Assembly (NCBI GenBank): GCA_963677495.2
Contig: CAXXOU010000003.1
Span: forward strand, 256,001 to 320,000
Length of the DNA stretch: 64,000 nucleotides
Direction: 5' to 3'
From: Candidatus Cloacimonadales bacterium
Lineage (GTDB): Bacteria; Cloacimonadota; Cloacimonadia; Cloacimonadales; JAFGVF01
Shown: positions 1,090 to 53,143 of the stretch, piece by piece
Numbering within the stretch: the first letter of the stretch is position 1
How the letters are laid out: each line of letters opens with the position of its first letter
Translations under genes and position numbers: made by a program
The notes under the pieces: generated by a model
Seen by the model: only the letters and a program-made list of their open reading frames with translations
Told to the model about the DNA's origin: nothing
The model's database searches: none

Positions 1090-1231
1090 CATTGCTCCTT
1101 CATAATTCAGCACCAATTTGTATCAATTTCTACTCAGAATCTTATCACTCTCTTATGCTCTACCCCCAGAAAGGCCCAAGAGACTCTCAAAATTCGGTCT
1201 ACTTTTAATCACTTATTATGATGGAGGAATG
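1090..1231. repeat. 142-bp palindromic element, copy 1
   Basis: Ends CATTGCTCCTTCATAAT and ATTATGATGGAGGAATG are imperfect inverted repeats. Aligns along its length to the reverse complement of 13143-13284. Confidence 0.85.
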
Positions 1232-1422
1232 AAAGAACATAGAGTCTAAATCTTCTGAAACGAGAATCAGAACTCAGAATAATATTAAAAAAGATTGACA
1301 TAATACAGAATGTATGTAAAGTTTTGTATGTTAGGATTTAATCTGAAGGATTCATAGTCTTTCTGATTAAATCCTGCAAAAGAAAACAGTGTTAAAACTG
1401 TATATTATCTTTTGGAGGAATC

Positions 1423-3321
1423 ATGCAACATTTGTCAAATGAGCAAGGCTCTATCTCTTTAGCTATTATTGTAGCTATAATCGCAATCATCTCAGCTACA
1501 TCATTAGCTCTTATTGCAAAAACTGACCATGCACATCTTGGTTTAACTATTTCAAATGAACAGGAACGGATATTACTACGTTCTGAGATTGAAAGGTGCT
1601 ACACTGTTCTTAGTAATACAGACACAATTAGTGGAATGGTTTTACCTGAACGACGCGTTAACATCAAAGCAAAGAACTATGACAGGACTTACTATACTAA
1701 CTCAGAGATAAAACCTAAAACATCCACTGCTCAAGGTGTGATGAGTTATGAACTTAAATGTGGAATTAGCAACTCAAAAGGAGTTTTCAATAGGCTAAGA
1801 ACACGTGTGGATAGATATAGTTATGCCGAAGTTGGACGTCTGAATCTTGCCGGGATTCATTACTTTACAGATTCTGAGTTAACAGTAAACAACACTCAAG
1901 CTTGTTTCTGGGGAAATGATGTTGTCTATGGAGAATTACACACTAATGGTGATATTGCTGTTCAGAATGGTGGTAATAACCAATACAATGGTCCATGGCC
2001 CTGTTTCTTTAGTAAGGTGTCTATGGCAGGTGATTTAAATTGGTATAATGGTGCCGGTCCTATGGATCAAATCTTTAGAGACGGGTATCAGGAAAATGCG
2101 GAAGTTATCCCTTTCCCGAATAGTGCAGATGATATTAGAATGCTTGGAACTGTAATTGATATTTCCGGGGATATATTATATATTAGATCATTTGGAGCAT
2201 CTACAGAAGGTTATATGGGGACAATAGTTTACGCTGGAATAGATACTTTGTTTAATCTGGTACCTGAAGTTGGCACATGGACAGCATCAGATGGAGTTCA
2301 GAACCCGTATCAATACGTTCGAGACCGTTCTGCGTTTAATAGAATGACTCATAAGGATACTATTTGGAGTTCATGTTCTGTAACATGTCCGAATGGTGGA
2401 GGAGTTTTGATAGAAAATGCACAGTTATGGATAGATGGCACTTTCTCTGGTGCACAGACTTGGGCTTGTACTGACACTTTGTTTATCGCAGGAGATATCC
2501 TTTTAGATGGAACAGCAATGGGAGAGTTTCCGGACGATGTTATGCATCATAATGATAGCGACAGAGTTGGTTTGATATCAGAGGAGAGTATCGTTATCAA
2601 ATATGGCATGCCGGATTTATTAGCGGGAATAGATGGTGGGATATATCATCGCTTACACCCTAACAGTGATGATATTTACATCTATGCTGCTTTATGTGCT
2701 CTTGGAGATGGGAATAGTAACCCTAACTATGATGGAAGATTTACATTTGAGTATCAACACCCACATGCTTCAACGCCTTCTATCGGCTTTACTGAAATCT
2801 ATGATCCCGAGATGGATACTGTATTCACTAAGAACGTTGCATATCCCGACCTTCAGGGCTTATCGAACGTCAACGGCTACACTCCTACAGGATATGGAGA
2901 TATAATTGATTATAGTAGCTCAACAATAAACAATAACTGGCCCGGAGATTTGGACTTCCCGTTCTATAATCCACTATATCCCGAAGGACCTAATGACATA
3001 AATCAATATGCCGGTGAACGAGGAACTATTCACCTTTTTGGTTCAGTTGCTCAAAGAAGAAAAGGCTATGTACATCGCTCGAATTACCAGAATCTCAATA
3101 GAACCCAAAATGTTTGGATGTTCAATGATGAAGATTTCACAGGAATTGCCCAATATGGTGGAAACTGTACATCAGCAGGAGAAGGTTATGATACATATTA
3201 TATGTTCGACTCGAGATTCATTTCAACCCCTCCTCCCTTATTCCCTTTAACAAATAAACTGATATTTGTGGACCATAGTAAGATGACTAGCTCGCAAGCA
3301 GGGAGCCATGCTGACTTCTAA
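1423..3321 (+). CDS. PilX-like protein with prepilin-like N-terminus (hypothetical)
   Basis: GGAGG RBS. N-terminus NEQG|SISLAIIVAIIAII resembles a class III signal peptide. G.LHTNGD motif and C-terminal Y.FD.R...PPP.FP motif. Confidence 0.65.
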   Translation: MQHLSNEQGSISLAIIVAIIAIISATSLALIAKTDHAHLGLTISNEQERILLRSEIERCYTVLSNTDTISGMVLPERRVNIKAKNYDRTYYTNSEIKPKTSTAQGVMSYELKCGISNSKGVFNRLRTRVDRYSYAEVGRLNLAGIHYFTDSELTVNNTQACFWGNDVVYGELHTNGDIAVQNGGNNQYNGPWPCFFSKVSMAGDLNWYNGAGPMDQIFRDGYQENAEVIPFPNSADDIRMLGTVIDISGDILYIRSFGASTEGYMGTIVYAGIDTLFNLVPEVGTWTASDGVQNPYQYVRDRSAFNRMTHKDTIWSSCSVTCPNGGGVLIENAQLWIDGTFSGAQTWACTDTLFIAGDILLDGTAMGEFPDDVMHHNDSDRVGLISEESIVIKYGMPDLLAGIDGGIYHRLHPNSDDIYIYAALCALGDGNSNPNYDGRFTFEYQHPHASTPSIGFTEIYDPEMDTVFTKNVAYPDLQGLSNVNGYTPTGYGDIIDYSSSTINNNWPGDLDFPFYNPLYPEGPNDINQYAGERGTIHLFGSVAQRRKGYVHRSNYQNLNRTQNVWMFNDEDFTGIAQYGGNCTSAGEGYDTYYMFDSRFISTPPPLFPLTNKLIFVDHSKMTSSQAGSHADF

Positions 3322-3340
3322 TTTAAGTGTCTTAATATTT

Positions 3341-3369
3341 AGGGTAGACAATGTCTGCCCTTTTTCTTT
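3341..3369 (+). terminator. Rho-independent terminator
   Basis: AGGGTAGACA-A-TGTCTGCCCT hairpin followed by a T run, just after the 1423-3321 gene. Confidence 0.65.
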
Positions 3370-3389
3370 ACTCAATCATAGGAGTTAAA

Positions 3390-3950
3390 ATGACTATTAG
3401 TGAAAGACCAATATCGGATGTTATGCACATACATGAAGTTTCTATTGCCTTTGAGGTAAAGTCTGTGTGCAGATTCAAACTTACAACTGATGAATATTGC
3501 TTCATTGAAGAGTCGATAGAAAAACCATATATCAAAGACTATGATTCTATCCCAGATAATCATCCTATGGATTGGGCAAAAGAATTTGATATGCAGAATT
3601 GGGGATTACTATTCGCTCACGAAGATGATAAGATAATAGGTTCAGCTTTAATCGCATACAATACTAATGGTGTGAATATGCTGGAAGGTAGCAGTGAATT
3701 AGCTGTACTCTGGGACTTACGAGTAGCACCTAAACATAGAGGGAAAGGGGTTGGGAGAGCACTATTTGATGCTGCGAAAGCTTGGGCAAAAGCAAAAGGT
3801 TGCAAAGAGCTTAAGATTGAGACGCAGAACAACAATGTGGGAGCTCTGAAATTCTATTTCAAACAGGGAGCTGAATTAAGAAAGGTAGTTACCAATGCCT
3901 ATGATGCTGTTCCGGGTGAGGATATGCTTCTATTCTATGTGAAAATTTGA
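3390..3950 (+). CDS. GNAT family N-acetyltransferase
   Basis: WDLRVAPKHRGKGVGRALF acetyl-CoA motif and ETQNNNVGA.KFY. AGGAG RBS before ATG 3390. Confidence 0.9.
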   Translation: MTISERPISDVMHIHEVSIAFEVKSVCRFKLTTDEYCFIEESIEKPYIKDYDSIPDNHPMDWAKEFDMQNWGLLFAHEDDKIIGSALIAYNTNGVNMLEGSSELAVLWDLRVAPKHRGKGVGRALFDAAKAWAKAKGCKELKIETQNNNVGALKFYFKQGAELRKVVTNAYDAVPGEDMLLFYVKI

Positions 3951-4102
3951 GAGAAAGCATTATAAGTAACGACACGTGTATTTATTGCATAATCTCTAGT
4001 TTCAAACTCTTTAGAATCTTAAACTCTTTTTTAACACTAAGAGACTAACTTACAACTGTCTATCATAAGAAGTTAAGTAAATCATTTGCTACACTTCTCG
4101 TT

Positions 4103-4244
4103 CTAGTCCCAGCAGTAATAATTACCGTTATGATAGCGATATCTCAGTAATAACTTACCAATTACTTAGTAATTAGGCCAAGGATTGGCCAAGAATTGGC
4201 CAAGAGTTGCCTAAGGGTTTGCTAAGAATTACTGCTGGGAAATG
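4103..4244. repeat. 142-bp palindromic element with 11-bp periodic (TTGGCCAAG) array
   Basis: Perfect 13-bp inverted repeat TCCCAGCAGTAAT (4107-4119) / ATTACTGCTGGGA (4228-4240). Internal units ATTGGCCAAGA, ATTGGCCAAGA, GTTGCCTAAGG, GTTTGCTAAGA. Inverted homolog at 30829-30970. Confidence 0.85.
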
Positions 4245-4452
4245 AGAGAGAAACAAGGGTCAAGTCATAACAACTACGGATTTAAAGGTTCCCACTATTG
4301 CAAGTTTAAGTGTAAGGAGGGACAAGGAACATCATGATCAGTTCGTAAGCTAAAGGTGAACATCTGTATGCTAAAAAGATATATATATTATAGCTAAGTC
4401 TCATTACTTCGAAATTAAGATGACCGTAATGGTGGTAACTAACAATAATTTC

Positions 4453-4481
4453 TTGACATCAATGCATACATTATATGTAAT
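4453..4481 (+). promoter_or_regulatory. Sigma70-type promoter
   Basis: TTGACA-N17-TGTAAT upstream of the 4524 gene. Confidence 0.55.
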
Positions 4482-4523
4482 TAGATGTTAATTTAAAACT
4501 TATACGAAAAATTGGGAGGAAAA

Positions 4524-6791
4524 ATGAAGAAGTTTACTCTATTCGTTTTATTATTTACTCTCATCCTGACTCTGACCGCAGACAGAATGAGTGCAGACAA
4601 CAATCTTAAACCATTACCTGATGGTAAACCACTTTTCCAAGCTAGTCGTCCAATGGCAAGAGACAATGCCAGTGGAATTACTTGGGAGATGCCTTTTAAC
4701 CCTGTTGCAATTCATGGATCTAATTATTATGATTACATGATTGCCGGATATAGCAATATCCCTATCCGCAGACAAGAAGATAGTGTTGCCGGTGGTGGTT
4801 GGTTCTACAATTTTATGTCAAAACCATCTGCATCAGGCAATAGACGTGTTTATTACGGCTGGATGGATGACAATGGTCCGACTACTGATCCGCTTTTATT
4901 CACAGGTGTTGACCAATGGGAAGGTTATCCATCAATGGATCTTGATGAAGCTGGTCACATGATTATGAGCTGGCACTCAATCGGTGCTGATGATGTTGCT
5001 GATGTTAAAGTTGGTTATGACCCTTACTTTGCAGGTATCCCAGGAATTCCAAGTGATGCTTTCATGGTAATGGATAACCCAACAAACACTAATGGTTTTG
5101 ATGATAATGAATTTATCTGGCCTGGTGTACAGGTTGGTGCATCACCATTAGGTGGAGGCTATAACCGTGCTTATATAATGGCAAAGAACACAGTTTCACA
5201 TTCAGTTATTAGCGAAACAAGTGGTGAAGCGCAAGCAGTTGAGAATGTTTATATTGCTTTTGCTGACTATACTTCTGATGACATTGACTTCGGTCTTGAG
5301 CTAACCTGGAACTATACAAGTATCCCTACTATCGATGCTTGGAATGTTGATACAAACGAATGGCGTCGCCCTAACTACTCTTTCATCATTGGTGAAGGTG
5401 AAAACGAAGGGAAAATCTTCTACATAGGAACTCACCTTGGTGATCTTGCTCCTGAAGAAGCATCATTTGATGTATTTATTCATGATGATTATTGTAACCC
5501 GGAAACAGAATGGCGTACAGTTAGCTTTGACATTGAAATGCCTTTAGCAAATCCTCAGAATGCAAACAATGAATACCTCTTCATGGATGATGAAAATAAT
5601 GTACCTTATGACTTGCATTGGGATATCGTAAATAGCTCACACAACAATGCAGCTTTTGATAATATGGGTAGAATCCATTTACCTGTAACCTATTGTATCG
5701 TAACTTCAGAAGATAGTTATTATTACTATTTCCACAACCTTAAAGACATGATTTTTGATCCAATGAATGAAACACTTGAAATTGTAGATATTTTCCCACA
5801 AAGTCTTGCAGAAGGTGAACATTATGTACCTTGGGACATGGATGCAGATGGTGCTTATGACGCATACTGGGATGACGGAACATACGATGGTGTAGATGAT
5901 GGTATAACTCCGGATGTTGAAGGATATGGTAATCTTAAATATGATACAATCTGGCCTTTCCAACATTGGGATAGTGATAGTCATGAAGAAGCTATGTTCT
6001 TTAACTTAAATCACCTCAAGATGACTTATGCTAATGACGACAATGTTATGGCTGCACTATGGTTAGATTCAACAGCAGGAAGAGACTTTCTTGGTGACAA
6101 CTTAACATATTGGGAGCCTTACCAATCTACTCCTGAAATCTATGTTGCTATTTCCGGAGACAATGGTGAGACATGGACTGAGCCTTTTGCTTTCAGTGGT
6201 GTTAATGTAGAAGAAGATTTCTGGTTTGATGATGATGGTGCTTATCTTGGATTCACAGAGACTCATGAATATGTTCCTGCATGGGATGGTATGACTACAA
6301 TGTATGCTTATCCATCAGAAGAGCTTATTCATATCGGTACAGATGATGATGGTAATGAGATTTACAGACTCTTCATTATGTTCCATGATGATGATGACTG
6401 GGGTTCATCAGTTGTAGGTGAAGGTCAAGCAGGACCGGGACAGGTTCTTATGAATGCAATTGACTTCCATATCCCTGCCTCAGTATCTAACGATACAAAC
6501 TCACAACCTGTTGTTAACAGCATGCTTCAACAGAACTATCCTAATCCATTTAGCTCAACTTCTACTTTCGAATATGACCTTAAGAACTCAGGTGATGTAA
6601 GCCTTAAAGTTTACAACATTAAAGGTCAGTTAGTGAGAACACTTGTAGATAACCATCAAACTGCTTCAATGCATCAGATAAACTGGAATGGCATGAGCGA
6701 TTCAGGTGATGTTGTACCAAGTGGTATTTACTTCTATAAGTTAGAAGCTAATGGACATACAGAAACAAGAAAGATGATAAAAATCAAATAA
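4524..6791 (+). CDS. Secreted acidic protein with FlgD-Ig/T9SS-A-like CTD
   Basis: GGAGG RBS, signal peptide, S.DNGETW Asp-box-like motif, C-terminal QNYPNPF...GIYFYKL...RKMIKIK. Confidence 0.85.
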   Translation: MKKFTLFVLLFTLILTLTADRMSADNNLKPLPDGKPLFQASRPMARDNASGITWEMPFNPVAIHGSNYYDYMIAGYSNIPIRRQEDSVAGGGWFYNFMSKPSASGNRRVYYGWMDDNGPTTDPLLFTGVDQWEGYPSMDLDEAGHMIMSWHSIGADDVADVKVGYDPYFAGIPGIPSDAFMVMDNPTNTNGFDDNEFIWPGVQVGASPLGGGYNRAYIMAKNTVSHSVISETSGEAQAVENVYIAFADYTSDDIDFGLELTWNYTSIPTIDAWNVDTNEWRRPNYSFIIGEGENEGKIFYIGTHLGDLAPEEASFDVFIHDDYCNPETEWRTVSFDIEMPLANPQNANNEYLFMDDENNVPYDLHWDIVNSSHNNAAFDNMGRIHLPVTYCIVTSEDSYYYYFHNLKDMIFDPMNETLEIVDIFPQSLAEGEHYVPWDMDADGAYDAYWDDGTYDGVDDGITPDVEGYGNLKYDTIWPFQHWDSDSHEEAMFFNLNHLKMTYANDDNVMAALWLDSTAGRDFLGDNLTYWEPYQSTPEIYVAISGDNGETWTEPFAFSGVNVEEDFWFDDDGAYLGFTETHEYVPAWDGMTTMYAYPSEELIHIGTDDDGNEIYRLFIMFHDDDDWGSSVVGEGQAGPGQVLMNAIDFHIPASVSNDTNSQPVVNSMLQQNYPNPFSSTSTFEYDLKNSGDVSLKVYNIKGQLVRTLVDNHQTASMHQINWNGMSDSGDVVPSGIYFYKLEANGHTETRKMIKIK

Positions 6792-6814
6792 ACTATTAAC
6801 CCTTAAAAAGATAG

Positions 6815-6845
6815 AAAGCCCTGATTATATCAGGGCTTTATTAAT
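6815..6845 (+). terminator. Rho-independent terminator
   Basis: AAAGCCCTGAT-TAT-ATCAGGGCTTT hairpin. Confidence 0.75.
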
Positions 6846-7009
6846 TATTGGCAGATAAAATAAAAAGCATTTGACAGCATTTTACCGTTTTCGAAATTTA
6901 TGCAGAGGTTAGGAGATTATAGTTAGTTTTGGAATAATGCATAGGGAGATTCAAACCAAATGAATATTATGCATTTAATTAATAATTTCATAAAAATAAG
7001 GAGGATCTA

Positions 7010-10000
7010 ATGAGTAAGAAATTGCTATTAGTTCTTGTTGTTGCAATCATGGTATTTAGCTTACTGGCAGATGGTACAAACACTGAAGCCGGAGCTCCAT
7101 TAGTTAACGCGTTACCGTATACTGATACCGGAGACTTAAGTGATAATACTGATGACAATGCACAAAGAGGAAGAGACGAGTGGTGGGAAATCACTCCGAC
7201 TATTGATTTAACAAATGTGGACATTCATCCTGTATACGACGGTTGGGATGGATATCTTTATATTTATGATTCTAATTTAACTCAAATTGCCTATGATGAT
7301 GATGGTCCTGGTGGAACAGCTGACTCTCAAGTAATCATGGATATAGCAGCAGGTACAACTGTATACGTATGTATTGATGAATATTCAGCAAGCACAGATC
7401 AGAGAACTTTCACTCTCAATATCTCTGCTGATCAAACAGGTACTATCGTTGATGCAGATGCTCCTGATATGATTACAAACGTTAATCCTGCAAGTGGTGC
7501 CATTGATGTAGCTCTTATGCCTACATTAACTTGGGATTTCGGTGCAAACACAGAGACTTATGACATCTTGTTTGATACAGTTAATCCACCTGTCAACCAA
7601 GTTGTAACAGGTGCTACAGCCGGAGCTACAGGTTCTTATACACCAGCTGCTGATTTAGTAGAGTTTACAACATATTATTGGCAAGTTGTTTGTCATAATT
7701 CTATTACGACTACAGCTACTGTAAACAGTATGAATTTCACTACTGTTGACATGTCTGCAGGACATATTGAGAATGCAGATCCAGCTAACGCAGCTCTTAA
7801 TGTACCACTTGATCAAGTTATCACTTGGGACTTTGCAGCAAATGCTGAAACTTATGACTTATACTTCGATACAGTAAACCCTCCTGTAAACCAGATCGTT
7901 ACTGATGCTGCTGTTGCAGGCCAAGGTTCTTATACACCAACAGGTTTACAGACTGCTACTACATATTACTGGAAAGTTGTTTCTAAAAACTCAACTTCTT
8001 TACGAGACACTGAAGACTTAATGTCTTTCCAGACTACTCTTGGAACTGATGTTCTTACAATTGGTAATGGTACTGAGATTAACCATCACCTTCCAATCGA
8101 ACCTTATTATGGTTACTCTTACTCACAAACTATCTATCTTCAGAGTGAAATAAACACTCCAGGTAGAAGAATTGAGAAAGTGTATTATCAGTATAATAAT
8201 GCTGCTACACTTAATAACTGTAACGAATGGGTTATTTACATGGGACATACTGCGAACAGCAGTTTTGCAAACAATGATGATTGGACTCCTGTTGCTCAGT
8301 TAACAGAAGTATATAATGGACCACTTCCTACTATCCCTGCTGATGGTTGGATTGAGTTTATTTTAACAACTCCATTTGTATATAACAACACTGATAATCT
8401 TATAATTGCTGTTGAAGAAAACCAACCTTCATATGGTAGTAGTTCAGAAGAGTTCTTTGGTACTGCTGTTACAGACCCACGTTCTATCTACTATTATACT
8501 GATAGTGCAGCAAACAATCCTGATCCTAATGCTCCACCGACAGCTCAAGGTACTCCAAGTGTTATTCCTAACACAAGATTATACTTCGGTGATATCCCAG
8601 CTGGTGCTCAGATGATGATCAACCCTGAAACTCATGACTTCGGTACATTATACACTAACACTGCTTCTGCTCCTATAACAATTTCAATGCAGAATACAGG
8701 TTCAGGTGTATTGAATGTTCAGTCTGTTGTTCTTGATGATACAGCTAACTATACATTAACTGATAATAATGTGTATCCTTTAGCTCTTAATACTGCTGAA
8801 AGTGCAACATTTGATGTTACATTCAATCCTGTAAATGACGGTCCTTTACCTGCTACTATCACTGTAACAGATGATATTACACGTCAAACTTACACTATCA
8901 ACCTTACAGGTGAAGGTTTCAATAATACAGTTTCTGTCTTCCCATATACTCAGAACTTTGATTTAGGTGCTGACCTTCCTATCGGTTGGGAACAGGGAAC
9001 AGAAGATGACAATGATTGGAGTGTAGGTTCTTCTACACCTTCATCTAGTACAGGTCCACAAGCCGGTGACCATACATCAGGTGCTGGGAACTTCGTTTTC
9101 ACTGAAGCTTCAGGTAACTTAAACCAACGTTTTGACCTGCTTGCTCCTCCTGTTGATATTACAACACTTGCAAATCCATTCTGTTCATTCTGGTATCACA
9201 TGCTTGGTGAATCAATGGGTACACTTCACGTGGATATCTGGGATGGTACTCAGTGGAATGAAGATGTAATGACACCAATCACCGGAGATCAAGGTGACAA
9301 CTGGCTTACAATGGATGTTCCATTAGCTGGTTTTGGTGATATTGTTCAAGTTAGATTCCGTGGTGTAACAGGTGATAACTATTACAGTGACATCGCTATT
9401 GATGACATCTCTTTCTGGGATAATGGAACTGCCCCTGGTGTTGCTACATTAGTAGCTCCAACTGATGGAGAAACAGGTGTTGCTATGACTGGTACTCTTG
9501 AGTGGGATTTCGTTATGGGTGCTTCAGGTTACTATGTAAACCTTGGTACAGATAATCCACCTACAGATGTATATAACATGTCTGATGCAGGTAATAGCTT
9601 AACATTTGATTATACAGGTCTTACTGCCGGTACTACTTACTATTGGCAGGTTGTTCCTTATAATGCTATTGGTAATGCTACTAATGCTCCAGTATGGTCA
9701 TTCACAACATTTAATGACCTTCCACTAGCGACTACTGTAGTTGCTCCAGCTGATGCAGCTATTCACCAGAGTATTACTCCTGTTCTTGAATGGGATGCTG
9801 CTGCTAACTTCCCTGATGGTTATAGAGTATCTCTCGGTACTGATAACCCTCCAACTGATGTTCTTAACGCTGAAGATGCTGGCTTCGTTACTTCTTATGC
9901 AGTAACTGGTCCTTTAGCTTTCGAAACAACATATTACTGGCAGGTTGTACCTTACAACTTCGTTGGTGATGCAGTTAACTGTCCTGTTTGGTCTTTCACA

Positions 10001-12840: not shown

Positions 12841-12984
12841 TATCTCCCCCCACTCAATAACAAATACTCAAAAATATCTCAGTTATCCACAGGATGTGAC
12901 TAACTTGATGCTTTGATCAAGTGAGTATCAAGAGAGTATCAGGTGTGTATCAAGTGTCTATCAAGTATTTAATGGGGGAAAATG
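12841..12984. repeat. ~144-bp palindromic element with DnaA-box-like pair and 11-bp GTATCAAG array
   Basis: Ends TATCTCCCCCCACTCAA / TTTAATGGGGGAAAATG. Contains AGTTATCCACAGGATGTGACTAACT and units GTGAGTATCAA, GAGAGTATCAG, GTGTGTATCAA, GTGTCTATCAA. Confidence 0.7.
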
Positions 12985-12991: not shown

Positions 12992-13135
12992 AACCTGCCG
13001 GAAATCGTACAAATAACCACAGATGAACCACGGGTAAACCACGCCCAAACAACGGGAGCCGTGGTTAACCCGCGGTTAAGGCGTGGTCAACCCGTGGTAA
13101 AGTATGCCACATATGTGTATCGTCCGGGGTAGATT
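12992..13135. repeat. ~144-bp palindromic element with head-to-head AACCACG/CGTGGTT 11-bp arrays
   Basis: AACCACAGATG, AACCACGGGTA, AACCACGCCCA, AACAACGGGAG, then inverted CCGTGGTTAAC, CCGCGGTTAAG, GCGTGGTCAAC, CCGTGGTAAAG. Flanks are imperfect inverted repeats. Confidence 0.75.
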
Positions 13136-13142: not shown

Positions 13143-13284
13143 TATCCCTCTATCATAATAGGTGAGTGAAAGTTGGCTCATTTTTGGGAGTCTCTTGGGC
13201 CTTCCTGGGAATGGAGCACAAGAAAGTGCTAAGATTTTGGGTAGGAAAGCAACTAAATTCATGTCTAATTATGATGGAGCAATG
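13143..13284. repeat. 142-bp palindromic element (inverted homolog of 1090-1231)
   Basis: Ends TATCCCTCTATCATAAT / ATTATGATGGAGCAATG. Its reverse complement aligns to 1090-1231. Confidence 0.85.
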
Positions 13285-30828: not shown

Positions 30829-30970
30829 TAGTGCTCCCGAATAATTCCTGGTAGACACTTGGCAAACCCTTGGTAAACACTTGGCCTATCCTTGGCCTAA
30901 TTACCAAGAATGTTACAGGTTAATGCCAGGGTTTTGCTAGCTTGAGATCAATTATTACTGCTGACACAAG
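30829..30970. repeat. 142-bp palindromic element with CTTGG 11-bp array
   Basis: Ends TAGTGCTCCCGAATAAT / ATTACTGCTGACACAAG. Units CCTGGTAGACA, CTTGGCAAACC, CTTGGTAAACA, CTTGGCCTATC, CTTGGCCTAAT. Shares TCCTTGGCCTAATTAC with the reverse complement of 4103-4244. Confidence 0.85.
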
Positions 30971-34291: not shown

Positions 34292-34912
34292 TTATTTTAA
34301 CAATGCAAAAATTAAAGCTATGATAGTAATTATTGCAATGGATTCTATACTGATAATTCTTTTTAACAAGGAATATCTTTTGATTTTTTTTGATTTCAAA
34401 TATAATGCTTCGAAACTATCAGCAATTTCATCAAACTTAGTGCGATAAGAAACTATTGGTTCATTTTTCCGTAGCGTTTCTTTTTTCTTTCTTATCGTAA
34501 CGATTTCTTTTAAAGTTGAAAAGTATAATCCTAAACTTATTCCATTTTCATCACATTGAGCATACATTTTGGGATACTTTTTAAAAACTCTCTCAATATT
34601 TAAGCCTGTCTCTCTTATGTAGCCATCAAAAATATCAGATTCTAATCTACGAAGATGTGATAATGATGCTTTGATTTCAGAATCGAATTTATCTTTATTA
34701 TTCTGATTAAGTAAGCAATCAAAAGCAAGAGTTATGTGATAGAATATGTGCTTATATTGGTTTAATGCTGCAACATTATTACTAATTGTGTATCTTTTGT
34801 CATAATCAAAACAAAAGATTCTAACTTTCGCATATAACTCACAAAAGTCATTGTAAGTATCACTTGTAATTAAAAAATCAAAGAGTTTTTTTTCATCCCA
34901 GTCCCCAGAAAT
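34292..34912 (-). CDS. Hypothetical protein with C-terminal TM helix; non-canonical or frameshifted start
   Basis: The frame stays open for about 120 codons upstream of the track's ATG at 34567. GGAGGT RBS precedes an in-frame ATT at 34912. An out-of-frame ATG (34896) precedes an A8 run. Confidence 0.6.
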   Translation of the reverse strand: MSGDWDEKKLFDFLITSDTYNDFCELYAKVRIFCFDYDKRYTISNNVAALNQYKHIFYHITLAFDCLLNQNNKDKFDSEIKASLSHLRRLESDIFDGYIRETGLNIERVFKKYPKMYAQCDENGISLGLYFSTLKEIVTIRKKKETLRKNEPIVSYRTKFDEIADSFEALYLKSKKIKRYSLLKRIISIESIAIITIIALIFALLK

Positions 34913-34936
34913 TGAATACCTCCGATAGTAGTTCTT

Positions 34937-35134
34937 TTAAGAAATACTATTTATAGCACCTCGAACAGAACCTACTGTTAAGTCAGCAGTTATAATAGAT
35001 TTCTTTTTATTCAGTTTTGAAGCTTTACCTAGCAAATTAGAATTCCTACGTTCAATAAAAGATCTTTCAATCGTTTTACGATTTTCTTGAAAACTATTAT
35101 TACTATCCCAATGTGTTCTCTTTTTTTTCATCAC
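34937..35134 (-). CDS. Small basic hypothetical protein
   Basis: AAGGAAGG RBS-like sequence upstream. Same frame as the downstream ORF. Confidence 0.35.
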   Translation of the reverse strand: MMKKKRTHWDSNNSFQENRKTIERSFIERRNSNLLGKASKLNKKKSIITADLTVGSVRGAINSIS

Positions 35135-35377
35135 AAAAACCTTCCTTTAAGATAAAGCAAACATTTACAATCAAATAGCTAGGTCAAGAAATAAATGTTT
35201 ATTATGACCTACAGGCTGATGGAAATCAAATCACCTATAAATCCATAAATAATTGTAGTTTCATATTTTGCAAGCTTTTTTTTGATTTTTTCCATTTTTT
35301 TAGTGATACCACTATTGCTTGCAATATATAAAGTTAGTAGTTTTCTGCAAAAACAGATGTATACTGCTAATAAATAC

Positions 35378-35408
35378 AAACGCCCTTCCTTTCCCAGGAA
35401 GGGCGTTT
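35378..35408 (-). terminator. Rho-independent terminator
   Basis: AAACGCCCTTCCT-TTCCC-AGGAAGGGCGTTT immediately after the 35415 stop. Confidence 0.75.
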
Positions 35409-35414
35409 AGTTAT

Positions 35415-35876
35415 TTAGTTACCATCGTAACTGTTTGTTAGATCATCATACTTACTGACCTTGGGCAAGAAACCATTATCAATGGCATCCTTAACTGTCT
35501 GAATCCCGATATCCAAGAGCTGGATATCAGCAAAGGTAACAGTCTTCAGGTCAATAGTAGGATCATCTTTGTGAACATTCCACCACATCTTCTGGTACAG
35601 AGCATAGAAGGTAGGTGGAACTGCATATTGATCAACGACATCGGTTTCATATCTCTGACAATAGGTTTTCAAGTCATCAACCCATCCGGAATCGAAACTG
35701 TCGTATACGATTCCAAGGTTTTTAGCAATGAGACCGATTGTCTGGTTCTGAGACGAGTAAGGTGGTGCAGCGTACTCTTTGGCAATGCATACTGCATCAT
35801 CATGCAAAGCCATGTAGGTTGTTTTGTCACGGGATCCGCTCCATGAAAGGAACGGGAAGCACATGTTAACTTTCAT
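35415..35876 (-). CDS. Small hypothetical protein, paralogue of 41242-41694 (possibly DUF6266-like)
   Basis: GGAGG RBS before MKVN. Shares IA..Y..P....N....AKNLG..Y.....G...DL..Y, KM, P..DLKT.T and LP.V with 41242-41694. Confidence 0.8.
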   Translation of the reverse strand: MKVNMCFPFLSWSGSRDKTTYMALHDDAVCIAKEYAAPPYSSQNQTIGLIAKNLGIVYDSFDSGWVDDLKTYCQRYETDVVDQYAVPPTFYALYQKMWWNVHKDDPTIDLKTVTFADIQLLDIGIQTVKDAIDNGFLPKVSKYDDLTNSYDGN

Positions 35877-35914
35877 TTTAGACCTCCTGGTCATTTGTAC
35901 TCATTAAGGCTAAT

Positions 35915-36035
35915 CGTAAAACGACTCTCCGGGTCGTTATTCCCCTCTCACAGAGGGGTGTCGTGTAACGACGGGGTGTTATCTCTTGGGTAGAGACAAC
36001 AAGTTACGTTAAACAACTCTCTAGGTCGTTATCCC
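35915..36035. repeat. REP-like composite palindromic repeat
   Basis: Reverse complement AACACCCCGTCGTTACACGACACCCCTCTGTGAGAGGGGAATAACGACCCGGAGAGTCGTTTTACG matches the repeat at 48162-48277. Confidence 0.8.
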
Positions 36036-36170
36036 CGGTTCCAATTAACCGAAAAAAATCTCTTCCTTAATAAGAGGTTGAAGGATCTGTCAGGAACTAC
36101 CACTGACGATTTACTAACTACATTTCGAGTTTTCAATGCATTGAGTTTCTATAGATTAGATTTAAAAAAA

Positions 36171-36240
36171 CATCTTTCATCATTCATTTTTCATCTTGCA
36201 TTCTTCATTCTTCATCTTGCATTTGTAATTTTGCATTTAT
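36171..36240. repeat. Degenerate 7-bp tandem repeat (TTCATCT/TGCATTC)
   Basis: CATCTTT CATCATT CATTTTT CATCTTG CATTCTT CATTCTT CATCTTG CATTTG. Confidence 0.7.
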
Positions 36241-36382
36241 TTTCTTCTCTCTATAACTATACTGGGGGAAAAATTGTTAGATTTTGTGAAAAGAGTGAAA
36301 ATTATTTATGAAATATATTTATCTTGACATAAGAAGAAATAATTTGGATTAATTTACTAAAATTATTGCTAGATGGGAAAGG

Positions 36383-37621
36383 ATGAATAAATATACATAT
36401 ATAGACTTGTTTGCTGGATGTGGAGGACTATCTTTGGGAATGAACCAATCAGGGTGGAAAGGTTTGTTTGCAGTTGAAAAGAGTCCATATGCATTTCTTA
36501 CTTTGAAAACTAATCTTATGAAGAAGTTAGATCACTTTAATTGGCCTGAATGGTTACCACAAACAGAACAAGATATAAACTCAATGCTTGAGAATCACAA
36601 AGAAGATTTATTAAAACTAAGGGGAAATATTGACTTAGTTGCAGGAGGTCCACCCTGCCAAGGATTCTCAACAGCAGGAAGAAGAATTGAAAGTGATAAT
36701 AGAAATCAGCTTATTGATTCTTACATAAGTTTCATCAGACTAGTTCAACCAAAATTAATTTTCTTTGAAAATGTAAGGGGATTTACTCAACGATTTAAAA
36801 AAAATAAATCGAATGGATTTAGATATTCAGAATATGTGAAAAAGGCATTAGAAAAGGATGGGACTGATTTTTCTGGTTATAAAGTTTATGGTGAATTGGT
36901 AGATTTCTCTGATTTTGGTGTACCCCAAAAGAGGACTAGATTTATACTAATTGGGATAAGAAAAGATTTCTCTAATGTACTTAATCCTGAGAACTTCTTT
37001 AACATTATTACAAAGAATAGAGAGTTTTTTTTCGCACAAAAATTGATTAACAAATCTACTTCAGTAAAAGATGCTATTTCAGACCTATACAAATCGAAGG
37101 TTAGGGTTGAATGTCCAGATTCGAAAAGTTTCGAAACAACCTGCTATACAAAAGAGGTTTCTCTATATCAAAAGTACTTGCGCAAAGATTATAAAAAGAG
37201 AATTCCAGATAGTCATAGGTTTACTAAACATGGGAAACAAACAATTTCTCTCTTTGAAAAATTGATAGAAAATGTACCCAAGGGTAGACGAATAAATCAA
37301 GAAATGAAAGAAAAGTTTGGGCTAAAGAAGCGAGGTTTAATTGTGCTTGACCCTAACAAACCCGCTCCGACAATTACTTCGCATCCAGATGACTATTTAC
37401 ATTATGGAACTCCAAGAATTCTAACAGTCAGAGAATGTGCAAGAATTCAGTCATTTCCTGATTGGTTTGAATTTAAAGCTAAATACACAACTGGGGGGAA
37501 ACAAAGGAAGCATGAAGTACCTAGATACACTCAAGTAGGAAATGCTATCCCTCCTCTTTTCAGTGAGCAAGCAGGAAATGCTCTAAAGGAAATGTTAGAT
37601 TATGAGCAAACAAACATTTAA
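36383..37621 (+). CDS. dcm: DNA (cytosine-5)-methyltransferase
   Basis: Motifs DLFAGCGG (I), GGPPCQGFS (IV), FENV (VI), Q.R.R (VIII), R.LTVRE.ARIQSF (IX), GNAIPP (X). Confidence 0.95.
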   Translation: MNKYTYIDLFAGCGGLSLGMNQSGWKGLFAVEKSPYAFLTLKTNLMKKLDHFNWPEWLPQTEQDINSMLENHKEDLLKLRGNIDLVAGGPPCQGFSTAGRRIESDNRNQLIDSYISFIRLVQPKLIFFENVRGFTQRFKKNKSNGFRYSEYVKKALEKDGTDFSGYKVYGELVDFSDFGVPQKRTRFILIGIRKDFSNVLNPENFFNIITKNREFFFAQKLINKSTSVKDAISDLYKSKVRVECPDSKSFETTCYTKEVSLYQKYLRKDYKKRIPDSHRFTKHGKQTISLFEKLIENVPKGRRINQEMKEKFGLKKRGLIVLDPNKPAPTITSHPDDYLHYGTPRILTVRECARIQSFPDWFEFKAKYTTGGKQRKHEVPRYTQVGNAIPPLFSEQAGNALKEMLDYEQTNI

Positions 37622-39932
37622 AATTAGTGCCGCACTTAAGGATCTAATAGGTCGAGAACTCATTACTGATGAGTTTGTTGCTGTTTTCGAGTTAGTTAAG
37701 AACTCTTATGATGCAAATGCTAAACTTGTAAAAATTGTTTTTGAGAACAATAGAGATAGTCAGAATACTAGATTACTTATTATCGATGATGGTAAAGGTA
37801 TGAATTTTATAGAACTTAAGAACAAATGGCTTTTCGTTGCATATTCTGCAAAAAAACTAGGGAAAGAGAATGAAGATTATCGTGATAAATTAGATTTTCA
37901 TCGATCCTTTGCAGGTGCAAAGGGTGTCGGAAGATTCTCATGTGATAGATTAGGAAAACATTTACGTTTGATTACAAAAAAGGATGAAAAGAAATCTAAA
38001 CTGGAAGAATTAATTGTAGATTGGGTAGATTTCGAGGGTGTAGATGATAAACAGTTTGCCAATATTGAAGTCAAACATTCAACTCTTTTAAATAATGAGT
38101 ATGAATTAGAACATGGTACTGTTCTTGAAATTTCTGGATTAAGAGATAATTGGAATAGAGATAGAATATTAAAACTAAAGAAATCATTGGTTAAACTTAT
38201 CAATCCTGAAAAAGACAATAGCAGTGATCAATTTGAAATATCTATTATCGCTAAAGATGAGTTAAAGAAAGATAAGGAAATACAGAGTAACATCCTAAAT
38301 AAGAAGAATCATTTTAGTAACATTGTCAATGGTTTCATCAAGAATATTGTGTTTGAAGCATTAGAGATAAAAACAACTAATGTATTAGTTCAAATCTCAC
38401 CTTGTGGTGAGTATATTGAAACAACTCTCCAAGATAGAGGAGATATCATATTTCACCTTAAGGAAGTAAATCCTTATACTGAATTAAGAAATATCAATGT
38501 TTACCTTTTCCAATTGAATAGAAGTGCTAAACTCACTTTTACAAGGCTTATGGGAATCCCATCAGTAGAGTATGGATCTGTTTTTGTGTACAAGAATGGT
38601 TTTAGAATCTATCCATATGGAGAAGTTGGGGAAGATCTTCTGCTTATTGATAGAAGAAAACAACAGGGTTATAATAGGTATTTAGGCACGAGAGACCTTA
38701 TCGGTCGTATAGAAATAATAGGTGAGCAACCAAATCTAAGGGAAACTACGAGTAGAGATGGAGGTTTATTTAAAACTAATGCCTATAATCAACTAGTAGT
38801 ATTTTTCAGGACTAAAGTTTTAGCTCGACTTGAGAACTATGTAGTGAATATTATCAAATGGGGCGACGAAAGAATCGAAAAAGATCAAAACGGCTATATA
38901 ATAAGTAAAAACCCTGAATTGTGGCCTGTAGATGTAAAGATTGATATTTTAGAGATGATAACAGGATTCATCAAATCAAAAGATGTTATTGATATAAGTT
39001 ATGATGATAATTTCTTAAACATAATCGAAAACAAAAAAACTAATAGTATCGATAAAAGCATTAGAAGAATTGAGTCAATCGCAAATAAATCAAAGAATAG
39101 AGAAGTTATAAAAGAAGCACGTAAAATTAAAAAAGCATTCGAAAGTGTTATTAATGACCAAAAAAAAGCCATTGATAAAGCAGATAATGCAGAAAAAGAG
39201 CTTCTCAAAAGCAAACGAGAACTGGAATATATTACAAGTCAGAATATCTTTTTAACTAATAATATTAGTGACAATTCAATTAGTCTACAAAGTATTCTTC
39301 ATCATATAGGGTTAACAACAAACTGGTTAAGATTAGATATAAAAAAACTTATAAAAGCTGTAGATGAAGATAAAGGTAAAGGGGAAATATTAAGAATTGT
39401 TAAGCGAATGAGCTATCAAAATGAAAAGATTACCTCATTTTCAAAGTATTTCAAAAAGATAAATTATGATTATCATTCCAAAAAGATGAAAGCAGATTTA
39501 ATCATATTTATTAATGAGTATATCGAAAATGTTTATAAACTTAGAGAGGATTTAGACAATAATAGAGAGTTGATTAATGTTTCAGTTCATAATCCTCATT
39601 TTCTTAAATTAGAGATGATTGTTAATCCTATAGATATTATCATTGTTATTGATAATTTAATAAGTAACTCTCAAAAGAATGATGCGAAACAAGTAGATGT
39701 TAAATGGAGGAAAAACAGCAATAATAATATTGAAATGTCTGTAAAAGATGATGGAATTGGTATTCAAGATAAGTTACTAAAAAGAATATTTGATTTTGGT
39801 TTCACAACTACTAGAGGTTCAGGCATTGGTCTGTACCATGTAAGAGATCTGTTATCCAAGATGAAGGCAGATATTTCAGTATGTAACGAGCATGAAAAGG
39901 GTGTTGAATTTATAATTGAATTTCGGAGGTAA
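37602..39932 (+). CDS. MORC/GHKL ATPase fused to a C-terminal histidine kinase (paraMORC-type)
   Basis: N-terminal GHKL motifs ELVKNSYDA, DDGKGM, GAKGVGRF and HGT. S5-like V.VYKNGFRIYPYG. Coiled coil. C-terminal H-box (ILHHI), DNLISNS, KDDGIGI, IFDFGFTT, GSGIGL. Overlaps dcm by 20 bp. Confidence 0.9.
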   Translation: MSKQTFKISAALKDLIGRELITDEFVAVFELVKNSYDANAKLVKIVFENNRDSQNTRLLIIDDGKGMNFIELKNKWLFVAYSAKKLGKENEDYRDKLDFHRSFAGAKGVGRFSCDRLGKHLRLITKKDEKKSKLEELIVDWVDFEGVDDKQFANIEVKHSTLLNNEYELEHGTVLEISGLRDNWNRDRILKLKKSLVKLINPEKDNSSDQFEISIIAKDELKKDKEIQSNILNKKNHFSNIVNGFIKNIVFEALEIKTTNVLVQISPCGEYIETTLQDRGDIIFHLKEVNPYTELRNINVYLFQLNRSAKLTFTRLMGIPSVEYGSVFVYKNGFRIYPYGEVGEDLLLIDRRKQQGYNRYLGTRDLIGRIEIIGEQPNLRETTSRDGGLFKTNAYNQLVVFFRTKVLARLENYVVNIIKWGDERIEKDQNGYIISKNPELWPVDVKIDILEMITGFIKSKDVIDISYDDNFLNIIENKKTNSIDKSIRRIESIANKSKNREVIKEARKIKKAFESVINDQKKAIDKADNAEKELLKSKRELEYITSQNIFLTNNISDNSISLQSILHHIGLTTNWLRLDIKKLIKAVDEDKGKGEILRIVKRMSYQNEKITSFSKYFKKINYDYHSKKMKADLIIFINEYIENVYKLREDLDNNRELINVSVHNPHFLKLEMIVNPIDIIIVIDNLISNSQKNDAKQVDVKWRKNSNNNIEMSVKDDGIGIQDKLLKRIFDFGFTTTRGSGIGLYHVRDLLSKMKADISVCNEHEKGVEFIIEFRR

Positions 39933-39933
39933 T

Positions 39934-40869
39934 ATGCATTTATTTTACAACATTTTGTGGATTGATAACGATATCGAAGACTATATTGAGAGAGATGAAT
40001 TAGATGACATAGAAAAATTTCTTAAAAATCTTGGATTTATTCCACACATCAAGACTGACAATGGTGATAGTGAAATTAACGATCTGTTAGGAATTACAAA
40101 TTATGATTTAATTCTCTCTGATTTCAATTTAAACGAGAAAAAAGGAGATAGTATAGTTAAAGCGATAAGAGAAATGGGAATTCTCACCGAAATCATTTTT
40201 TATTCTGCTAACACTGATTTTAAAAATGATCCTAATATTTTATCTAGCAAAGTTCTTTTTGATAGAGTAAGTTTTCACTATGGTAGAACTACTTTAATGG
40301 AAAAGATTGAAGAGATAATCAAATTAACATTAAGAAAACTACTTGAACTAAATGCAACTCGAGGGCTAATAACATCTGCTACTAGTAGCTTAGATGTAGA
40401 TATTGAGAGTTTTGTGAGGTGCTTGGTTAATAATCATGTAGAACTAACTCAAGAACAGGTCGATAAAATTGTCAACGGTTACATAACTGATTGTTTAGAT
40501 AGAAAATCGGATAAGTTCAGAACTAAATATGAGAAGTTAGGTTTCTTAGATGTATTCTCTTCAATTGAAGCCTATAGAAAATGGAAGATTTTACGAGAAA
40601 TATTGAAACTAAAGCAGGGTGTAGCATACAGCGATGAAGTTGCCGATTTTTTAAAAATCAATAAGAAATATTATGAAGAAGTAATATTTATTAGAAATAG
40701 ATTTGCGCATTCAAAAGAAGTATGTATTGCAGGGGAAAAATGTTTGCAAGGTCAGATTGAAGGAGATCATTTCCAATTTAATGAAGAAACCTGTGTAGAT
40801 ATTCGTAAAAAATTAATAAAGCACATTGAGAGTTTTAATAATCTTAAAAAATATCTAAGCATAGATTGA
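39934..40869 (+). CDS. Response-regulator receiver domain fused to putative HEPN domain
   Basis: Receiver motifs ILWIDND, YDLILSDFNL (phospho-acceptor Asp) and IIFYSA. Helical C-terminus with RNRFAH (RxxxxH). GGAGGT RBS; starts 1 bp after the kinase stop. Confidence 0.8.
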   Translation: MHLFYNILWIDNDIEDYIERDELDDIEKFLKNLGFIPHIKTDNGDSEINDLLGITNYDLILSDFNLNEKKGDSIVKAIREMGILTEIIFYSANTDFKNDPNILSSKVLFDRVSFHYGRTTLMEKIEEIIKLTLRKLLELNATRGLITSATSSLDVDIESFVRCLVNNHVELTQEQVDKIVNGYITDCLDRKSDKFRTKYEKLGFLDVFSSIEAYRKWKILREILKLKQGVAYSDEVADFLKINKKYYEEVIFIRNRFAHSKEVCIAGEKCLQGQIEGDHFQFNEETCVDIRKKLIKHIESFNNLKKYLSID

Positions 40870-40883
40870 TAGGAATTTCAGAT

Positions 40884-40972
40884 ACTCCCTTGTATTATAC
40901 TCCCCTCTCCCTAGCCCTTCCCTTGCGTGGCAAGGGAGACCCAAGAGTAACCCAAGGGAAAGGCAAGGGATG
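40884..40972. repeat. Head-to-head 11-bp CCCTTG/CAAGGG array
   Basis: CTCCCTAGCCC, TTCCCTTGCGT, then GGCAAGGGAGA, CCCAAGAGTAA, CCCAAGGGAAA, GGCAAGGGATG. Confidence 0.75.
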
Positions 40973-41241
40973 ATTATCCATTTTCATGACATTTCTATAA
41001 GTGCTTTTTAGCTGACGAAATAATAGAGGAGCCAAGAGAATAATGCAGGTTTAGCAGGTTTTTATTTACTCTAAAATTGATTTAAACATTATCATTCAGG
41101 TAAAACAACTCAAATTTTCACAAATTCAGGTCATTTTTCACCCAGTATAGTTATAGAGGAAGGTTTATTAGCTAACAGTTAAGAGCCTATAGTCTATAAT
41201 TAAAATTGAAATCCCTATTTTTGGGGGATATGGAGGAAACA

Positions 41242-41694
41242 ATGAAAGTTAATTTAGATTTGATTGGAAAAGCATTGATTGGAAGGATTGGGAAGCTTGT
41301 CTTTTATCGATTCAAGAAATCAAATGTGCTTATTGCACGAGCTTATAAGAAACCCCGTTTGACTCAGAACAACTTCGATTTGCGCACTAAAGCAAAAAAT
41401 CTCGGCGTATTCTATCACAATGTATCAGATGGTTACAAACGAGACTTACGAAACTATGCGACCAACCTGAACAATGAAACAATCGGTGATAGCTGTATCT
41501 ACAATATGTACAATGTGTTTATTAAGATGATGTATGGATTGAAACGAATTTATCCTGAAGTGGATTTGAAAACTATTACACCCGAGATTGTTATTGAAGA
41601 AGGCTATCCGGTTGATACGATCTCGCATGCTGTGGATGCGTGTACATTACCTGAAGTAAAGTTTTCAAATGAGTTTACTAATCCGATAATATGA
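41242..41694 (+). CDS. Small hypothetical protein, paralogue of 35415-35876 (possibly DUF6266-like)
   Basis: GGAGG RBS before MKVN...GRIGKLVFY...IARAY. Motifs shared with 35415-35876. Confidence 0.85.
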   Translation: MKVNLDLIGKALIGRIGKLVFYRFKKSNVLIARAYKKPRLTQNNFDLRTKAKNLGVFYHNVSDGYKRDLRNYATNLNNETIGDSCIYNMYNVFIKMMYGLKRIYPEVDLKTITPEIVIEEGYPVDTISHAVDACTLPEVKFSNEFTNPII

Positions 41695-49958: not shown

Positions 49959-49966
49959 GAGGAGAA

Positions 49967-52294: not shown

Positions 52295-52316
52295 TTTCAA
52301 AGATTGATTAAAATTA

Positions 52317-52352
52317 ATGGCAGGCAGTTGAAAGCTCAACCGCCTGCCGTTC
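52317..52352. terminator. Bidirectional terminator
   Basis: ATGGCAGGCAGTTGA-AAGC-TCAACCGCCTGCCGT between convergent genes. Confidence 0.7.
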
Positions 52353-52356
52353 TATT

Positions 52357-52788
52357 CTATTTAACTTCTTCTTTAATAACGCTGGCATTCATCATGTTAT
52401 CTGCGATAGGGCATCTTCTTGTAATCTCTTCAAGGTATGCTTCTTTCTCTTCATGAGTCATATCAGCATCGATTTTAACGAAAGCTCTAATCTCAACAAA
52501 TCCTGCACGGCCTTCAGTTGTTTTGCCCATAAGGAAATCTTTATCGATGTCGCCTTCAACATCTACTTCGATTCCACGAACATTGAGTCTTTTCTGATTA
52601 GAAATAATTCTTCCGATTGCACAGATACAAGCAGGAAGTGATGAAAGGAATATCTCCATTGGATTAGGACCTGCACCTTCTCCACCCATAGCTTTAGGTT
52701 GGTCGATGTAGAAAGTCTGTGAGCAATTAACTTCAGTTTTGAAGCCTTCTCCCATTTTTGCACCAAGTTTTAATGTTGAAATTGGCAT
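52357..52788 (-). CDS. OsmC family protein
   Basis: DQP...GG...GPNP.E......C and RCP motifs. Confidence 0.9.
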   Translation of the reverse strand: MPISTLKLGAKMGEGFKTEVNCSQTFYIDQPKAMGGEGAGPNPMEIFLSSLPACICAIGRIISNQKRLNVRGIEVDVEGDIDKDFLMGKTTEGRAGFVEIRAFVKIDADMTHEEKEAYLEEITRRCPIADNMMNASVIKEEVK

Positions 52789-53001
52789 TTTTTGTCTCCT
52801 TATCTATTTAGTTTTCTTAATTTCAAGTTTGCTTTATTCTCACTTATTAATCTGTCAAGTAAATGTACGTTTTCACTTTGACATATAAACTGAAATGCTC
52901 CTCTCTAGATAGCTAAAAGATTCAAGGATAAAGCATAGTGTTTGCTTCCTAATTATATTTACATGAAATACAAGATATTTCAATCAGACTAGAAATTCTT
53001 C

Positions 53002-53143
53002 CATTGCTCTGCTACAATAGTCATGAGACACCTATTGAATCCCTGTTAAATTCCCGTTAGGTTCCCGTTACAGATAACGGGAGATGGATTGGACAATAAT
53101 GAGCTAGAGATATGAGTTGGATTATTATTATGAGAGAGCAATG
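53002..53143. repeat. 142-bp palindromic element with CCCGTTA/TAACGGG 11-bp arrays
   Basis: Ends CATTGCTCTGCTACAAT / ATTATGAGAGAGCAATG match those of the 1090 and 13143 copies. Interior CCTATTGAATC, CCTGTTAAATT, CCCGTTAGGTT, CCCGTTACAGA, then TAACGGGAGAT. Confidence 0.85.

Follow-up and report, generated by a model that had tools for sequence, protein, structure and literature searches.

The subject of this work is a set of 142-bp palindromic elements located in a 64,000-nucleotide stretch of DNA from a Candidatus Cloacimonadales bacterium (hereafter the window, that is, positions 256001-320000 of contig C3 in the 3.41-Mb source genome, G000), together with the orphan genes to which they appear to be connected. 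These elements represent a real, genus-specific family, which is part of a wider gene-repeat system of the Cloacimonadota, apparently undescribed. On balance, we favour the idea that they are mobile non-coding modules and that most families have a protein of their own, encoded by a basic (clade A) paralog of an orphan gene, which likely binds the repeated units cooperatively and is likely needed for the copying and/or the keeping of the family. This idea is based on the fixed geometry of the elements, on their mobility, on the adjacency of genes and arrays, and on an abundance that tracks the partner gene.

A previous reading of the window, carried out on the sequence alone, had described five elements, and all of them were recovered at the same positions (Table 1), each 142 bp long, with degenerate 17-bp inverted ends and a 108-bp interior. 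An end profile built from their ten ends retrieved, in a search of the whole G000 genome, 86 end pairs spaced as in a 142-bp element and 16 as in a 143-bp one, which became 92 and 15 (107 in total) after refinement, over a background of 0.22 pairs on average for each other length between 40 and 399 bp. The length of the elements does not vary freely, and the minor peaks (2-3 pairs each) include 109, 120, 131 and 153 bp, corresponding to 142 bp plus or minus multiples of 11 bp. Using profiles of the single families, 167 copies were counted in G000 (107 at 142 bp and 16 at 143 bp) and 55 in the 2.7 Mb (87%) read of its congener G001. Moreover, the degenerate end-N108-end pattern matched in 4 of the 232 genomes of the phylum, all of them members of the genus, with 46, 10, 5 and 5 places versus none for the reversed control. 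The copies are essentially all intergenic and irregularly spaced (coefficient of variation, CV, 0.86-1.09); neither their orientation nor their distance to genes is consistent, the orientation to transcription being mixed, and different copies have flanks in common in a mosaic fashion.

The interior of the elements follows an 11-bp lattice. In agreement with the periodicity first suggested, identity at lag 11 was raised in each family (0.36-0.60), other lags giving mostly 0.11-0.37, with lag 22 also raised. Within each element the 11-bp units form two runs that face each other head to head, the end boxes being 110 bp (ten turns) apart, and when both halves are folded modulo 11 a C is found in 75% of the positions 8+11k; C8 and C63, counted from both ends, are nearly invariant in the 142-bp families, and the terminal AA-TT distance is 110 bp in the F2, F4, TATCAAG/CTTACTC and GTGACC families. 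The terminal repeats are the outermost units of the lattice and not a separate feature, because the 11-bp phase crosses them and fades into the flanks (A at -21, -10, +2 and +13). F4 and F8 elements were also observed in tandem pairs, 98-99 bp (9 x 11) or 80-89 bp apart, at places including G000 C1:148992/149233, C1:593764/594005 and C3:463792/464033; given this spacing, the phase may extend between neighbouring modules.

On the basis of their 11-bp word, the interiors sort into families (F1, F2, F3, F4, F8 and F9), and the TATCAAG and CTTACTC families keep the 108-bp interior together with an inverted pair of DnaA-box-like sites. Overall, about 19 array families were counted in G000 and G001, and 268 intergenic 11-bp arrays in G000, an unusually repeat-rich genome. 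Inverted DnaA-box-like pairs inside the 142-bp frame occur at 12842-12983 and 63064-63205 of the window and in contigs C249 and C336 of G003; several array families have such a pair in the same frame, which can therefore hold different cargo. This sorting modifies the first description in some respects. The four copies grouped there as CTTGG-like are not one family, those at 1090 and 13143 belonging to F4 and those at 4103 and 30829 to F2, and the fifth, at 53002, belongs to F8; in the 30829 copy, to which one end of each type had been assigned, the left end reads to us as a decayed F2 end and the element not as a true hybrid. Among the additional arrays, that at 12921 sits inside a sixth 142-bp element and that at 63091 inside a module with the same 110-bp box spacing. 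Lastly, a re-diversifying interior is not needed, since the families are stable and the variable positions of an orthologous pair (see below) are about as diverged as neutral sites; the 52 F4 copies, whose mean interior identity is 52.5%, can be stacked without gaps.

The elements are mobile, because their presence and absence differ at syntenic sites. Proteins of G000 and G001 are identical at 81% of positions (median), and in 1155 syntenic intergenic regions an element was found in both genomes once, in G000 only ten times, in G001 only four times and in neither 1140 times, so that 1 of 15 occupied sites is shared. In the orthologous pair (n = 1), 47 of 52 family-conserved positions and 20 of 46 variable ones are identical, with no indel, and the four-fold sites of the two flanking genes are identical in 39/111 and 149/267 cases; this single pair suggests constraint in place. 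Solo copies are discrete modules of about 100-200 bp lacking the leader of the gene. The unit formed by array, leader and gene also moves: one such unit of 822 bp, ending 5 bp past the stop codon, is duplicated at 96.8% identity.

Concerning the way in which the modules move, no direct repeat of 2-12 bp attributable to target duplication was found in 107 copies with boundary shifts from -8 to +8, old insertions weakening this test. The multi-copy insertion sequence (IS)-like repeats of at least 600 bp in G000 gave negative end-profile scores, in a screen that left single-copy transposases and other genomes outside. No serine recombinase (PF00239), as would be needed for IS607-type ends, was matched in G000, whose completeness is 99.5%, and none of the four IS110 copies interrupts an element. 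A Xer/dif reading was dropped, as only two tyrosine recombinase genes, probably XerC/D, are present; the element ends have CATAAT/ATTATG in common with dif, but 108 bp apart and not in all families. An invertible segment was likewise discarded, no flank being seen in both orientations among paralogous sites. Empty paralogous sites were obtained for one short F2-like subgroup only and gave no exact boundary. Contigs from one sample covering 800-7953 and 30300-35498 contained no joint excising or flipping the 1090, 4103 and 30829 copies, although contigs drop rare variants, and the almost complete absence of contig cover over about 35.6-42.5 kb of the window proves nothing. A separate observation concerns an IS of about 1.36 kb with two open reading frames (ORFs) and TG...CA ends, presumably of the IS3 family, whose copies all (6/6) lie at most about 30 bp from an F2-type end and in one case cut into it. 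IS elements that target repetitive extragenic palindromes (REPs) have reportedly been found; the siting of this IS resembles them and could reflect guidance by a bound partner protein.

The clustering of the genes adjacent to the elements exposed a family of orphan genes of about 150 aa, with 22 members in G000, 11 full-length ones in G001, and matches in 137 of the 232 genomes of the phylum (359 representatives at E <= 0.001). No significant Pfam, PHROG or PDB sequence match was obtained, 141 members having been compared with Pfam. DUF6266 (PF19781) matched none of the 141 at E <= 0.05 and is a weak Atlas neighbour only (score 0.85, family on 11% of members); HMG-box matches in 2 of the 141 (E 0.006) were treated as chance. 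In the predicted model, which is confident (pLDDT 94), helices follow a short region of beta-hairpin. At E <= 0.001 Foldseek returned nothing from PDB or BFVD, and the weak list obtained with VIA-align for the whole model (Z <= 4.0) is headed by the ribbon-helix-helix proteins TraM (Z 4.0, rmsd 2.4, 49 aligned) and Arc (Z 3.7, rmsd 3.5, 71 aligned), the best Z for the low-confidence N-terminal model being 2.7. The absence of clear matches is not evidence of a new fold. In a tree with 58 rows, from which one truncated G001 row was left out, clade A (32 rows) is separate from clade B (26 rows); clade A is basic (median pI 9.4, net charge +7, n = 93) and clade B neutral (median pI 6.8, net charge 0, n = 91). 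It was also observed that clade-B genes of family f4 recur beside a conserved ORF of about 50-60 aa at seven loci (L132, L134, L136, L138, L145, L151 and L153).

A check for co-occurrence with small paralogous proteins, proposed in the sequence-only reading, proved a productive lead, the clade-A genes being array-linked. An array is present in the upstream intergenic region of 17 of the 22 clade-A genes, 10.6 being expected from length-matched regions (p = 0.003), of none of the nine clade-B genes, and on the downstream side of none of the 22 clade-A genes. Four of the five clade-A misses have, by eye, an array masked by spurious ORF calls, and in the fifth a REP cluster separates the gene from an array located about 1.2 kb upstream. 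Of eight additional clade-A-like genes in G001-G003, whose assignment was based on similarity or on the tree, seven have arrays. In most array families one copy precedes a paralog of the orphan gene that belongs to that family, and protein sub-clade and array word match across genomes for F2 (3/3) and F4 (3/3), as well as for the CACTG, CCAAGG and CCCTAG pairs. In the window, the 150-aa clade-A protein is likely the binder of the CAAGGG array that precedes its gene. Two other measures distinguished the genes poorly from the background: a strict head-to-head score based on exact 5-mers, and a lag-11 score that was pooled.

The number of copies follows the partner gene. Considering 19 motif families in G000 and G001, and counting each combination of family and genome as one cell, all 22 cells with the partner gene hold at least two copies (up to 67), and 12 of the 16 cells without it hold 0-1 (Fisher p = 7e-7). 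For instance, F2a has 28 copies versus 0, CCCGTTG 1 versus 17, and the CCACGG family 29 in G000 and 1 in the 2.7 Mb of G001. Linkage accounts for a gene keeping its own upstream array; it does not explain the fate of the solo copies. As families are mostly missing where the gene is missing, the protein likely binds the modules and is likely needed for their spread. The same gene-array pairing recurs in other Cloacimonadota families, and in two of four tests made beyond the genus the array preceding a clade-A gene was dispersed and lineage-private: the G025 array has 21 matches versus one weak match in a congener, and the G045 array 78, many on both strands, versus 7, 0 and 0 in three congeners.

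Binding, autoregulation and the chemistry of copying are the parts of this scenario that we infer. Each clade-A protein would bind its own 11-bp word, one per helical turn, along the two opposed half-arrays, giving a two-fold symmetric protein-DNA complex whose register would tolerate only whole-turn (11-bp) changes in length. Cooperative binding of this kind would account for a length that is locked, for variants differing by whole turns and for the conservation of the register. The phased binding platform suggested by the sequence-only reading holds part of the answer, in that the elements look like such platforms, motifs and length being kept and the arms of F4 not covarying. The copy linked to the gene would act as its operator, and what is copied to new sites would be the coated module, in the way a RAYT (REP-associated tyrosine transposase), itself not moving, copies its REPINs. 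Cutting and joining would be the work of the partner protein or of a host enzyme recruited by it. A comparable geometry would be that of parC of plasmid R1, described in PMC2241845 as a region of about 150 bp in which two sets of 11-bp repeats are bound by approximately one ParR dimer per repeat, placed by the gene of its binder and doubling as its operator. However, the parC sets described there are direct, surround the promoter, occur in single copy and work with the ParM ATPase, whereas the present ones are head-to-head, chromosomal and in tens of copies, and a ribbon-helix-helix fold is not established for their partner; no recurring neighbour of the partition-ATPase type was recognised among 59 loci clustered by BLAST, profile libraries not having been applied to the neighbours.

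Several findings weigh against the idea of a dedicated binder that drives its own family. The first, cruder test, which pooled both clades, was not significant (14/31 vs 284/856, p = 0.18), and arrays are common, being present in 379 of 857 long upstream regions. No DNA-binding or catalytic motif was recognised in the partner protein, and the residues conserved in it (G14, R33, D68 and Y72) are common to clade A and the array-less clade B. No clean empty site fixing the boundaries was found, nor did alignments of seven syntenic regions provide one. In the dependence count, the motif patterns were written after the arrays had been seen, only two genomes were counted, one of them read at 87%, the cells are not independent, and three of the cells scored as present hold just 2-3 copies, the gene-linked one included. 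Furthermore, four cells break the rule, as none of them has a gene-linked copy: F1 with 14 copies in G001, F8 with 23 and 7 in the two genomes, and F9 with 9 in G000; these are all 142/143-bp families with end boxes in common with F4 and F2, and their recognition by the F4/F2 proteins is only a guess. Lastly, in the other two tests outside the genus the array was not dispersed (one place in G090 and two in G043).

Another explanation is that the elements are docking platforms selected by the host, the partners being sequence-specific nucleoid or regulatory proteins, and the copies passive products of recombination between intergenic repeats that are kept, for a gain to the host from the bound sites, only where the protein exists. 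In the orthologous pair (n = 1) motifs and length are kept in place with neutral sites near saturation, and the almost exclusively intergenic location, the mosaic sharing of flanks and the basic nature of clade A point in the same direction. Nevertheless, we regard this explanation as rather unlikely: the sharing of just one occupied syntenic site in 15, the irregular spacing and the absence of a consistent orientation or distance to genes do not fit it, and the sets of families and partner genes change from one congener to another, which is unlike a core function of the chromosome.

A decidedly improbable origin is an iteron-type mini-origin with its initiator, that is, a degenerate replicon whose solo copies derive from local over-replication and ectopic integration. 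The inverted pairs in the TATCAAG/CTTACTC, CCCTAG, GTGACC and CCAAGG families, which are DnaA-box-like, would suit such an origin, as would the duplicated array-plus-gene unit. Iteron origins, as presented in PMC4980987, combine phased repeats and DnaA boxes with a cooperative, phase-dependent binding, and the arrays resemble them also in lying upstream of a candidate binder gene. However, the F1, F2, F4, F8 and F9 consensus sequences, and with them the main 142-bp families, have no such boxes, the units are 11 bp and head-to-head versus 17-22 bp for the iterons listed there, the copies are dispersed in the chromosome, and no Pfam Rep family matched any of the 141 members. For a winged-helix Rep protein, the fold searches gave no clear match.

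The possibility of an ordinary MITE (miniature inverted-repeat transposable element) or REPIN moved by a known transposase, either a DDE IS or one of the 14 Y1/RAYT-like genes of G000, with the orphan gene as a passenger, is close to the other alternative of the sequence-only reading, a non-autonomous MITE/REPIN-like element. What stands of that alternative is the mobility. The REPIN-RAYT system is described as a gene next to a copy of its own repeat with tens of dispersed intergenic copies (PMC3116915, 10.1101/2021.07.10.451892), and the likeness extends to the two-part design, to several gene-repeat pairs per genome and to inverted conserved ends around a length-conserved, variable spacer (PMC3116915). 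CT is also the commonest dinucleotide just outside the ends (96/242), and RAYTs cleave at CT according to PMC8266576. However, the partner is here a 150-aa orphan without HUH/Y1 match, the spacer is replaced by an 11-bp lattice, and most partner genes do not keep synteny between congeners, one being recently duplicated. The 242 ends are not self-folding palindromes (mean -1.36 vs -1.25 kcal/mol for shuffles), and the long hairpin with compensatory changes typical of REPINs was not found in the main family (F4, n = 52, z 0.5-1.5). The Y1 flanks examined carry other, distinct nests of palindromes, and elements are not enriched near the REP words flanking Y1 genes (13/167 vs 13.9 +/- 3.4). As for MITEs, the inverted ends and the non-coding, intergenic nature are those of Correia, RUP and BrickBuilt, which are short and in some cases carry host-protein sites, as reported in PMC10969869, but target duplication and an IS with matching ends were not found here, interiors about 52% identical align without gaps, and each family has a private non-transposase gene, which its presence follows. 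We consider this origin very improbable.

The covariation check proposed with the first description was negative in the largest family, F4 (n = 52; z 1.5 for the ends and 0.5 for the interior), where folding is mostly weak; F8 mostly folds no better than shuffles, and F8 and F9 are weak on compensatory changes. In F1 and F2, with eight copies tested per family, folding was better than in shuffles (z of the whole element -1.2 to -12), and F2 gave positive values (z 5.2 for the ends and 3.4 for the interior) that can come from its two sub-lineages. Motifs and length kept without covariation of the arms would be the pattern of double-stranded protein sites and not of a paired fold. A structured non-coding RNA family, or single-strand hairpins with the length set by the fold, is extremely improbable, since the folding of F1 and F2 and the covarying F2 ends are set against the behaviour of F4 and F8, the mixed orientation to transcription and the absence of Rfam matches at the gathering threshold in the window.

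In conclusion, the elements fail the defining REPIN and MITE tests and cannot be filed with centromeres or iteron origins. The gene-array system likely resembles REPIN-RAYT in its population structure and parC-ParR in its binding geometry, probably being a member of neither, and no description of it was found in the literature searched, which did not cover most subscription papers.

Table 1. Position of the elements, arrays and orphan genes of the window, and of the insertion sequence associated with F2-type ends (window coordinates unless a contig is given).
Feature	Position	Strand	Remarks
142-bp element F4 (core CCCAAGAGACTC)	1090..1231		partner genes elsewhere: G000 C1:781894; G001 786594 and 1194110
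142-bp element F2 (CTTGG units)	4103..4244		partner genes G000 C4:946147 and C4:1498355; G001 154721
Sixth 142-bp element, 108-bp interior	12842..12983		TATCAAG units and an inverted pair, presumably DnaA-box-like; partner G000 C4:777579
Head-to-head 11-bp array, CCACGG family	13015..13102		terminal boxes not found; partner G000 C4:453465
142-bp element F4	13143..13284		orientation opposite to the 1090 copy
142-bp element F2	30829..30970		decayed left end
Orphan 153-aa gene, clade B (neutral)	35415..35876	-	array absent upstream; serves as internal negative control
Head-to-head 11-bp array, CAAGGG family, gene-linked	40884..40969		ends 272 bp ahead of the 41242 gene (clade A)
Orphan 150-aa gene, clade A (basic)	41242..41694	+	predicted beta-hairpin plus helices
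142-bp element F8 (TAACGGG units)	53002..53143		gene-linked copy not found in G000 or G001
CCCTCCCTAG-family module, DnaA-box-like pair	63064..63205		end boxes decayed and, by inspection, 110 bp apart; partner G000 C1:522547, the pairing being the same in G002
IS of about 1.36 kb, six copies	G000 C2:141733-143089, C2:234313-235707, C2:359441 onward, C3:92603-93995, C4:220987-222349, C4:1237819-1239175		

As for the other genes of the window, the clade-B and clade-A paralogs at the two ends of 35415-41694 point outward around genes coding for a C5 DNA methylase, an ATPase/histidine-kinase-like protein and a receiver-domain protein, the whole block having the aspect of an island and being possibly defensive. 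Between 4512 and 52294, ten proteins have C-terminal FlgD_ig/Por_Secre_tail-like sorting domains, three of them being 1768-1861 aa long with MAM and Ig-like domains.

A remaining question concerns the meaning of this organization. The spread and persistence of short bacterial repeats are well studied for REPIN-RAYT and for MITEs derived from IS, and the present system fits neither by the tests made. A concrete candidate partner can now be named, that is, a family of hundreds of orphan proteins, and the system predicts the binding of each protein to its own array and a tolerance to length changes with a period of 11 bp. If the protein moves DNA, this would represent a new mobilisation chemistry; if it only binds, the family would still be new among DNA-binding proteins, and its many pairs of protein and matching site might allow a recognition code to be read. 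We can tentatively speculate, as a possibility to which we give distinctly less than even chances, that the Cloacimonadota harbour an undescribed class of two-part intragenomic replicators, in which a small orphan protein recognises an 11-bp code of its own at each helical turn, assembles on a head-to-head array and is itself the driver of the copying of that array. If this idea was correct, the system would be a counterpart of REPIN-RAYT that dispenses with HUH enzyme, hairpins and target duplications, two genomes would offer about 20 natural pairs of protein-DNA specificity, and each new paralog would found its own population of dispersed repeats.

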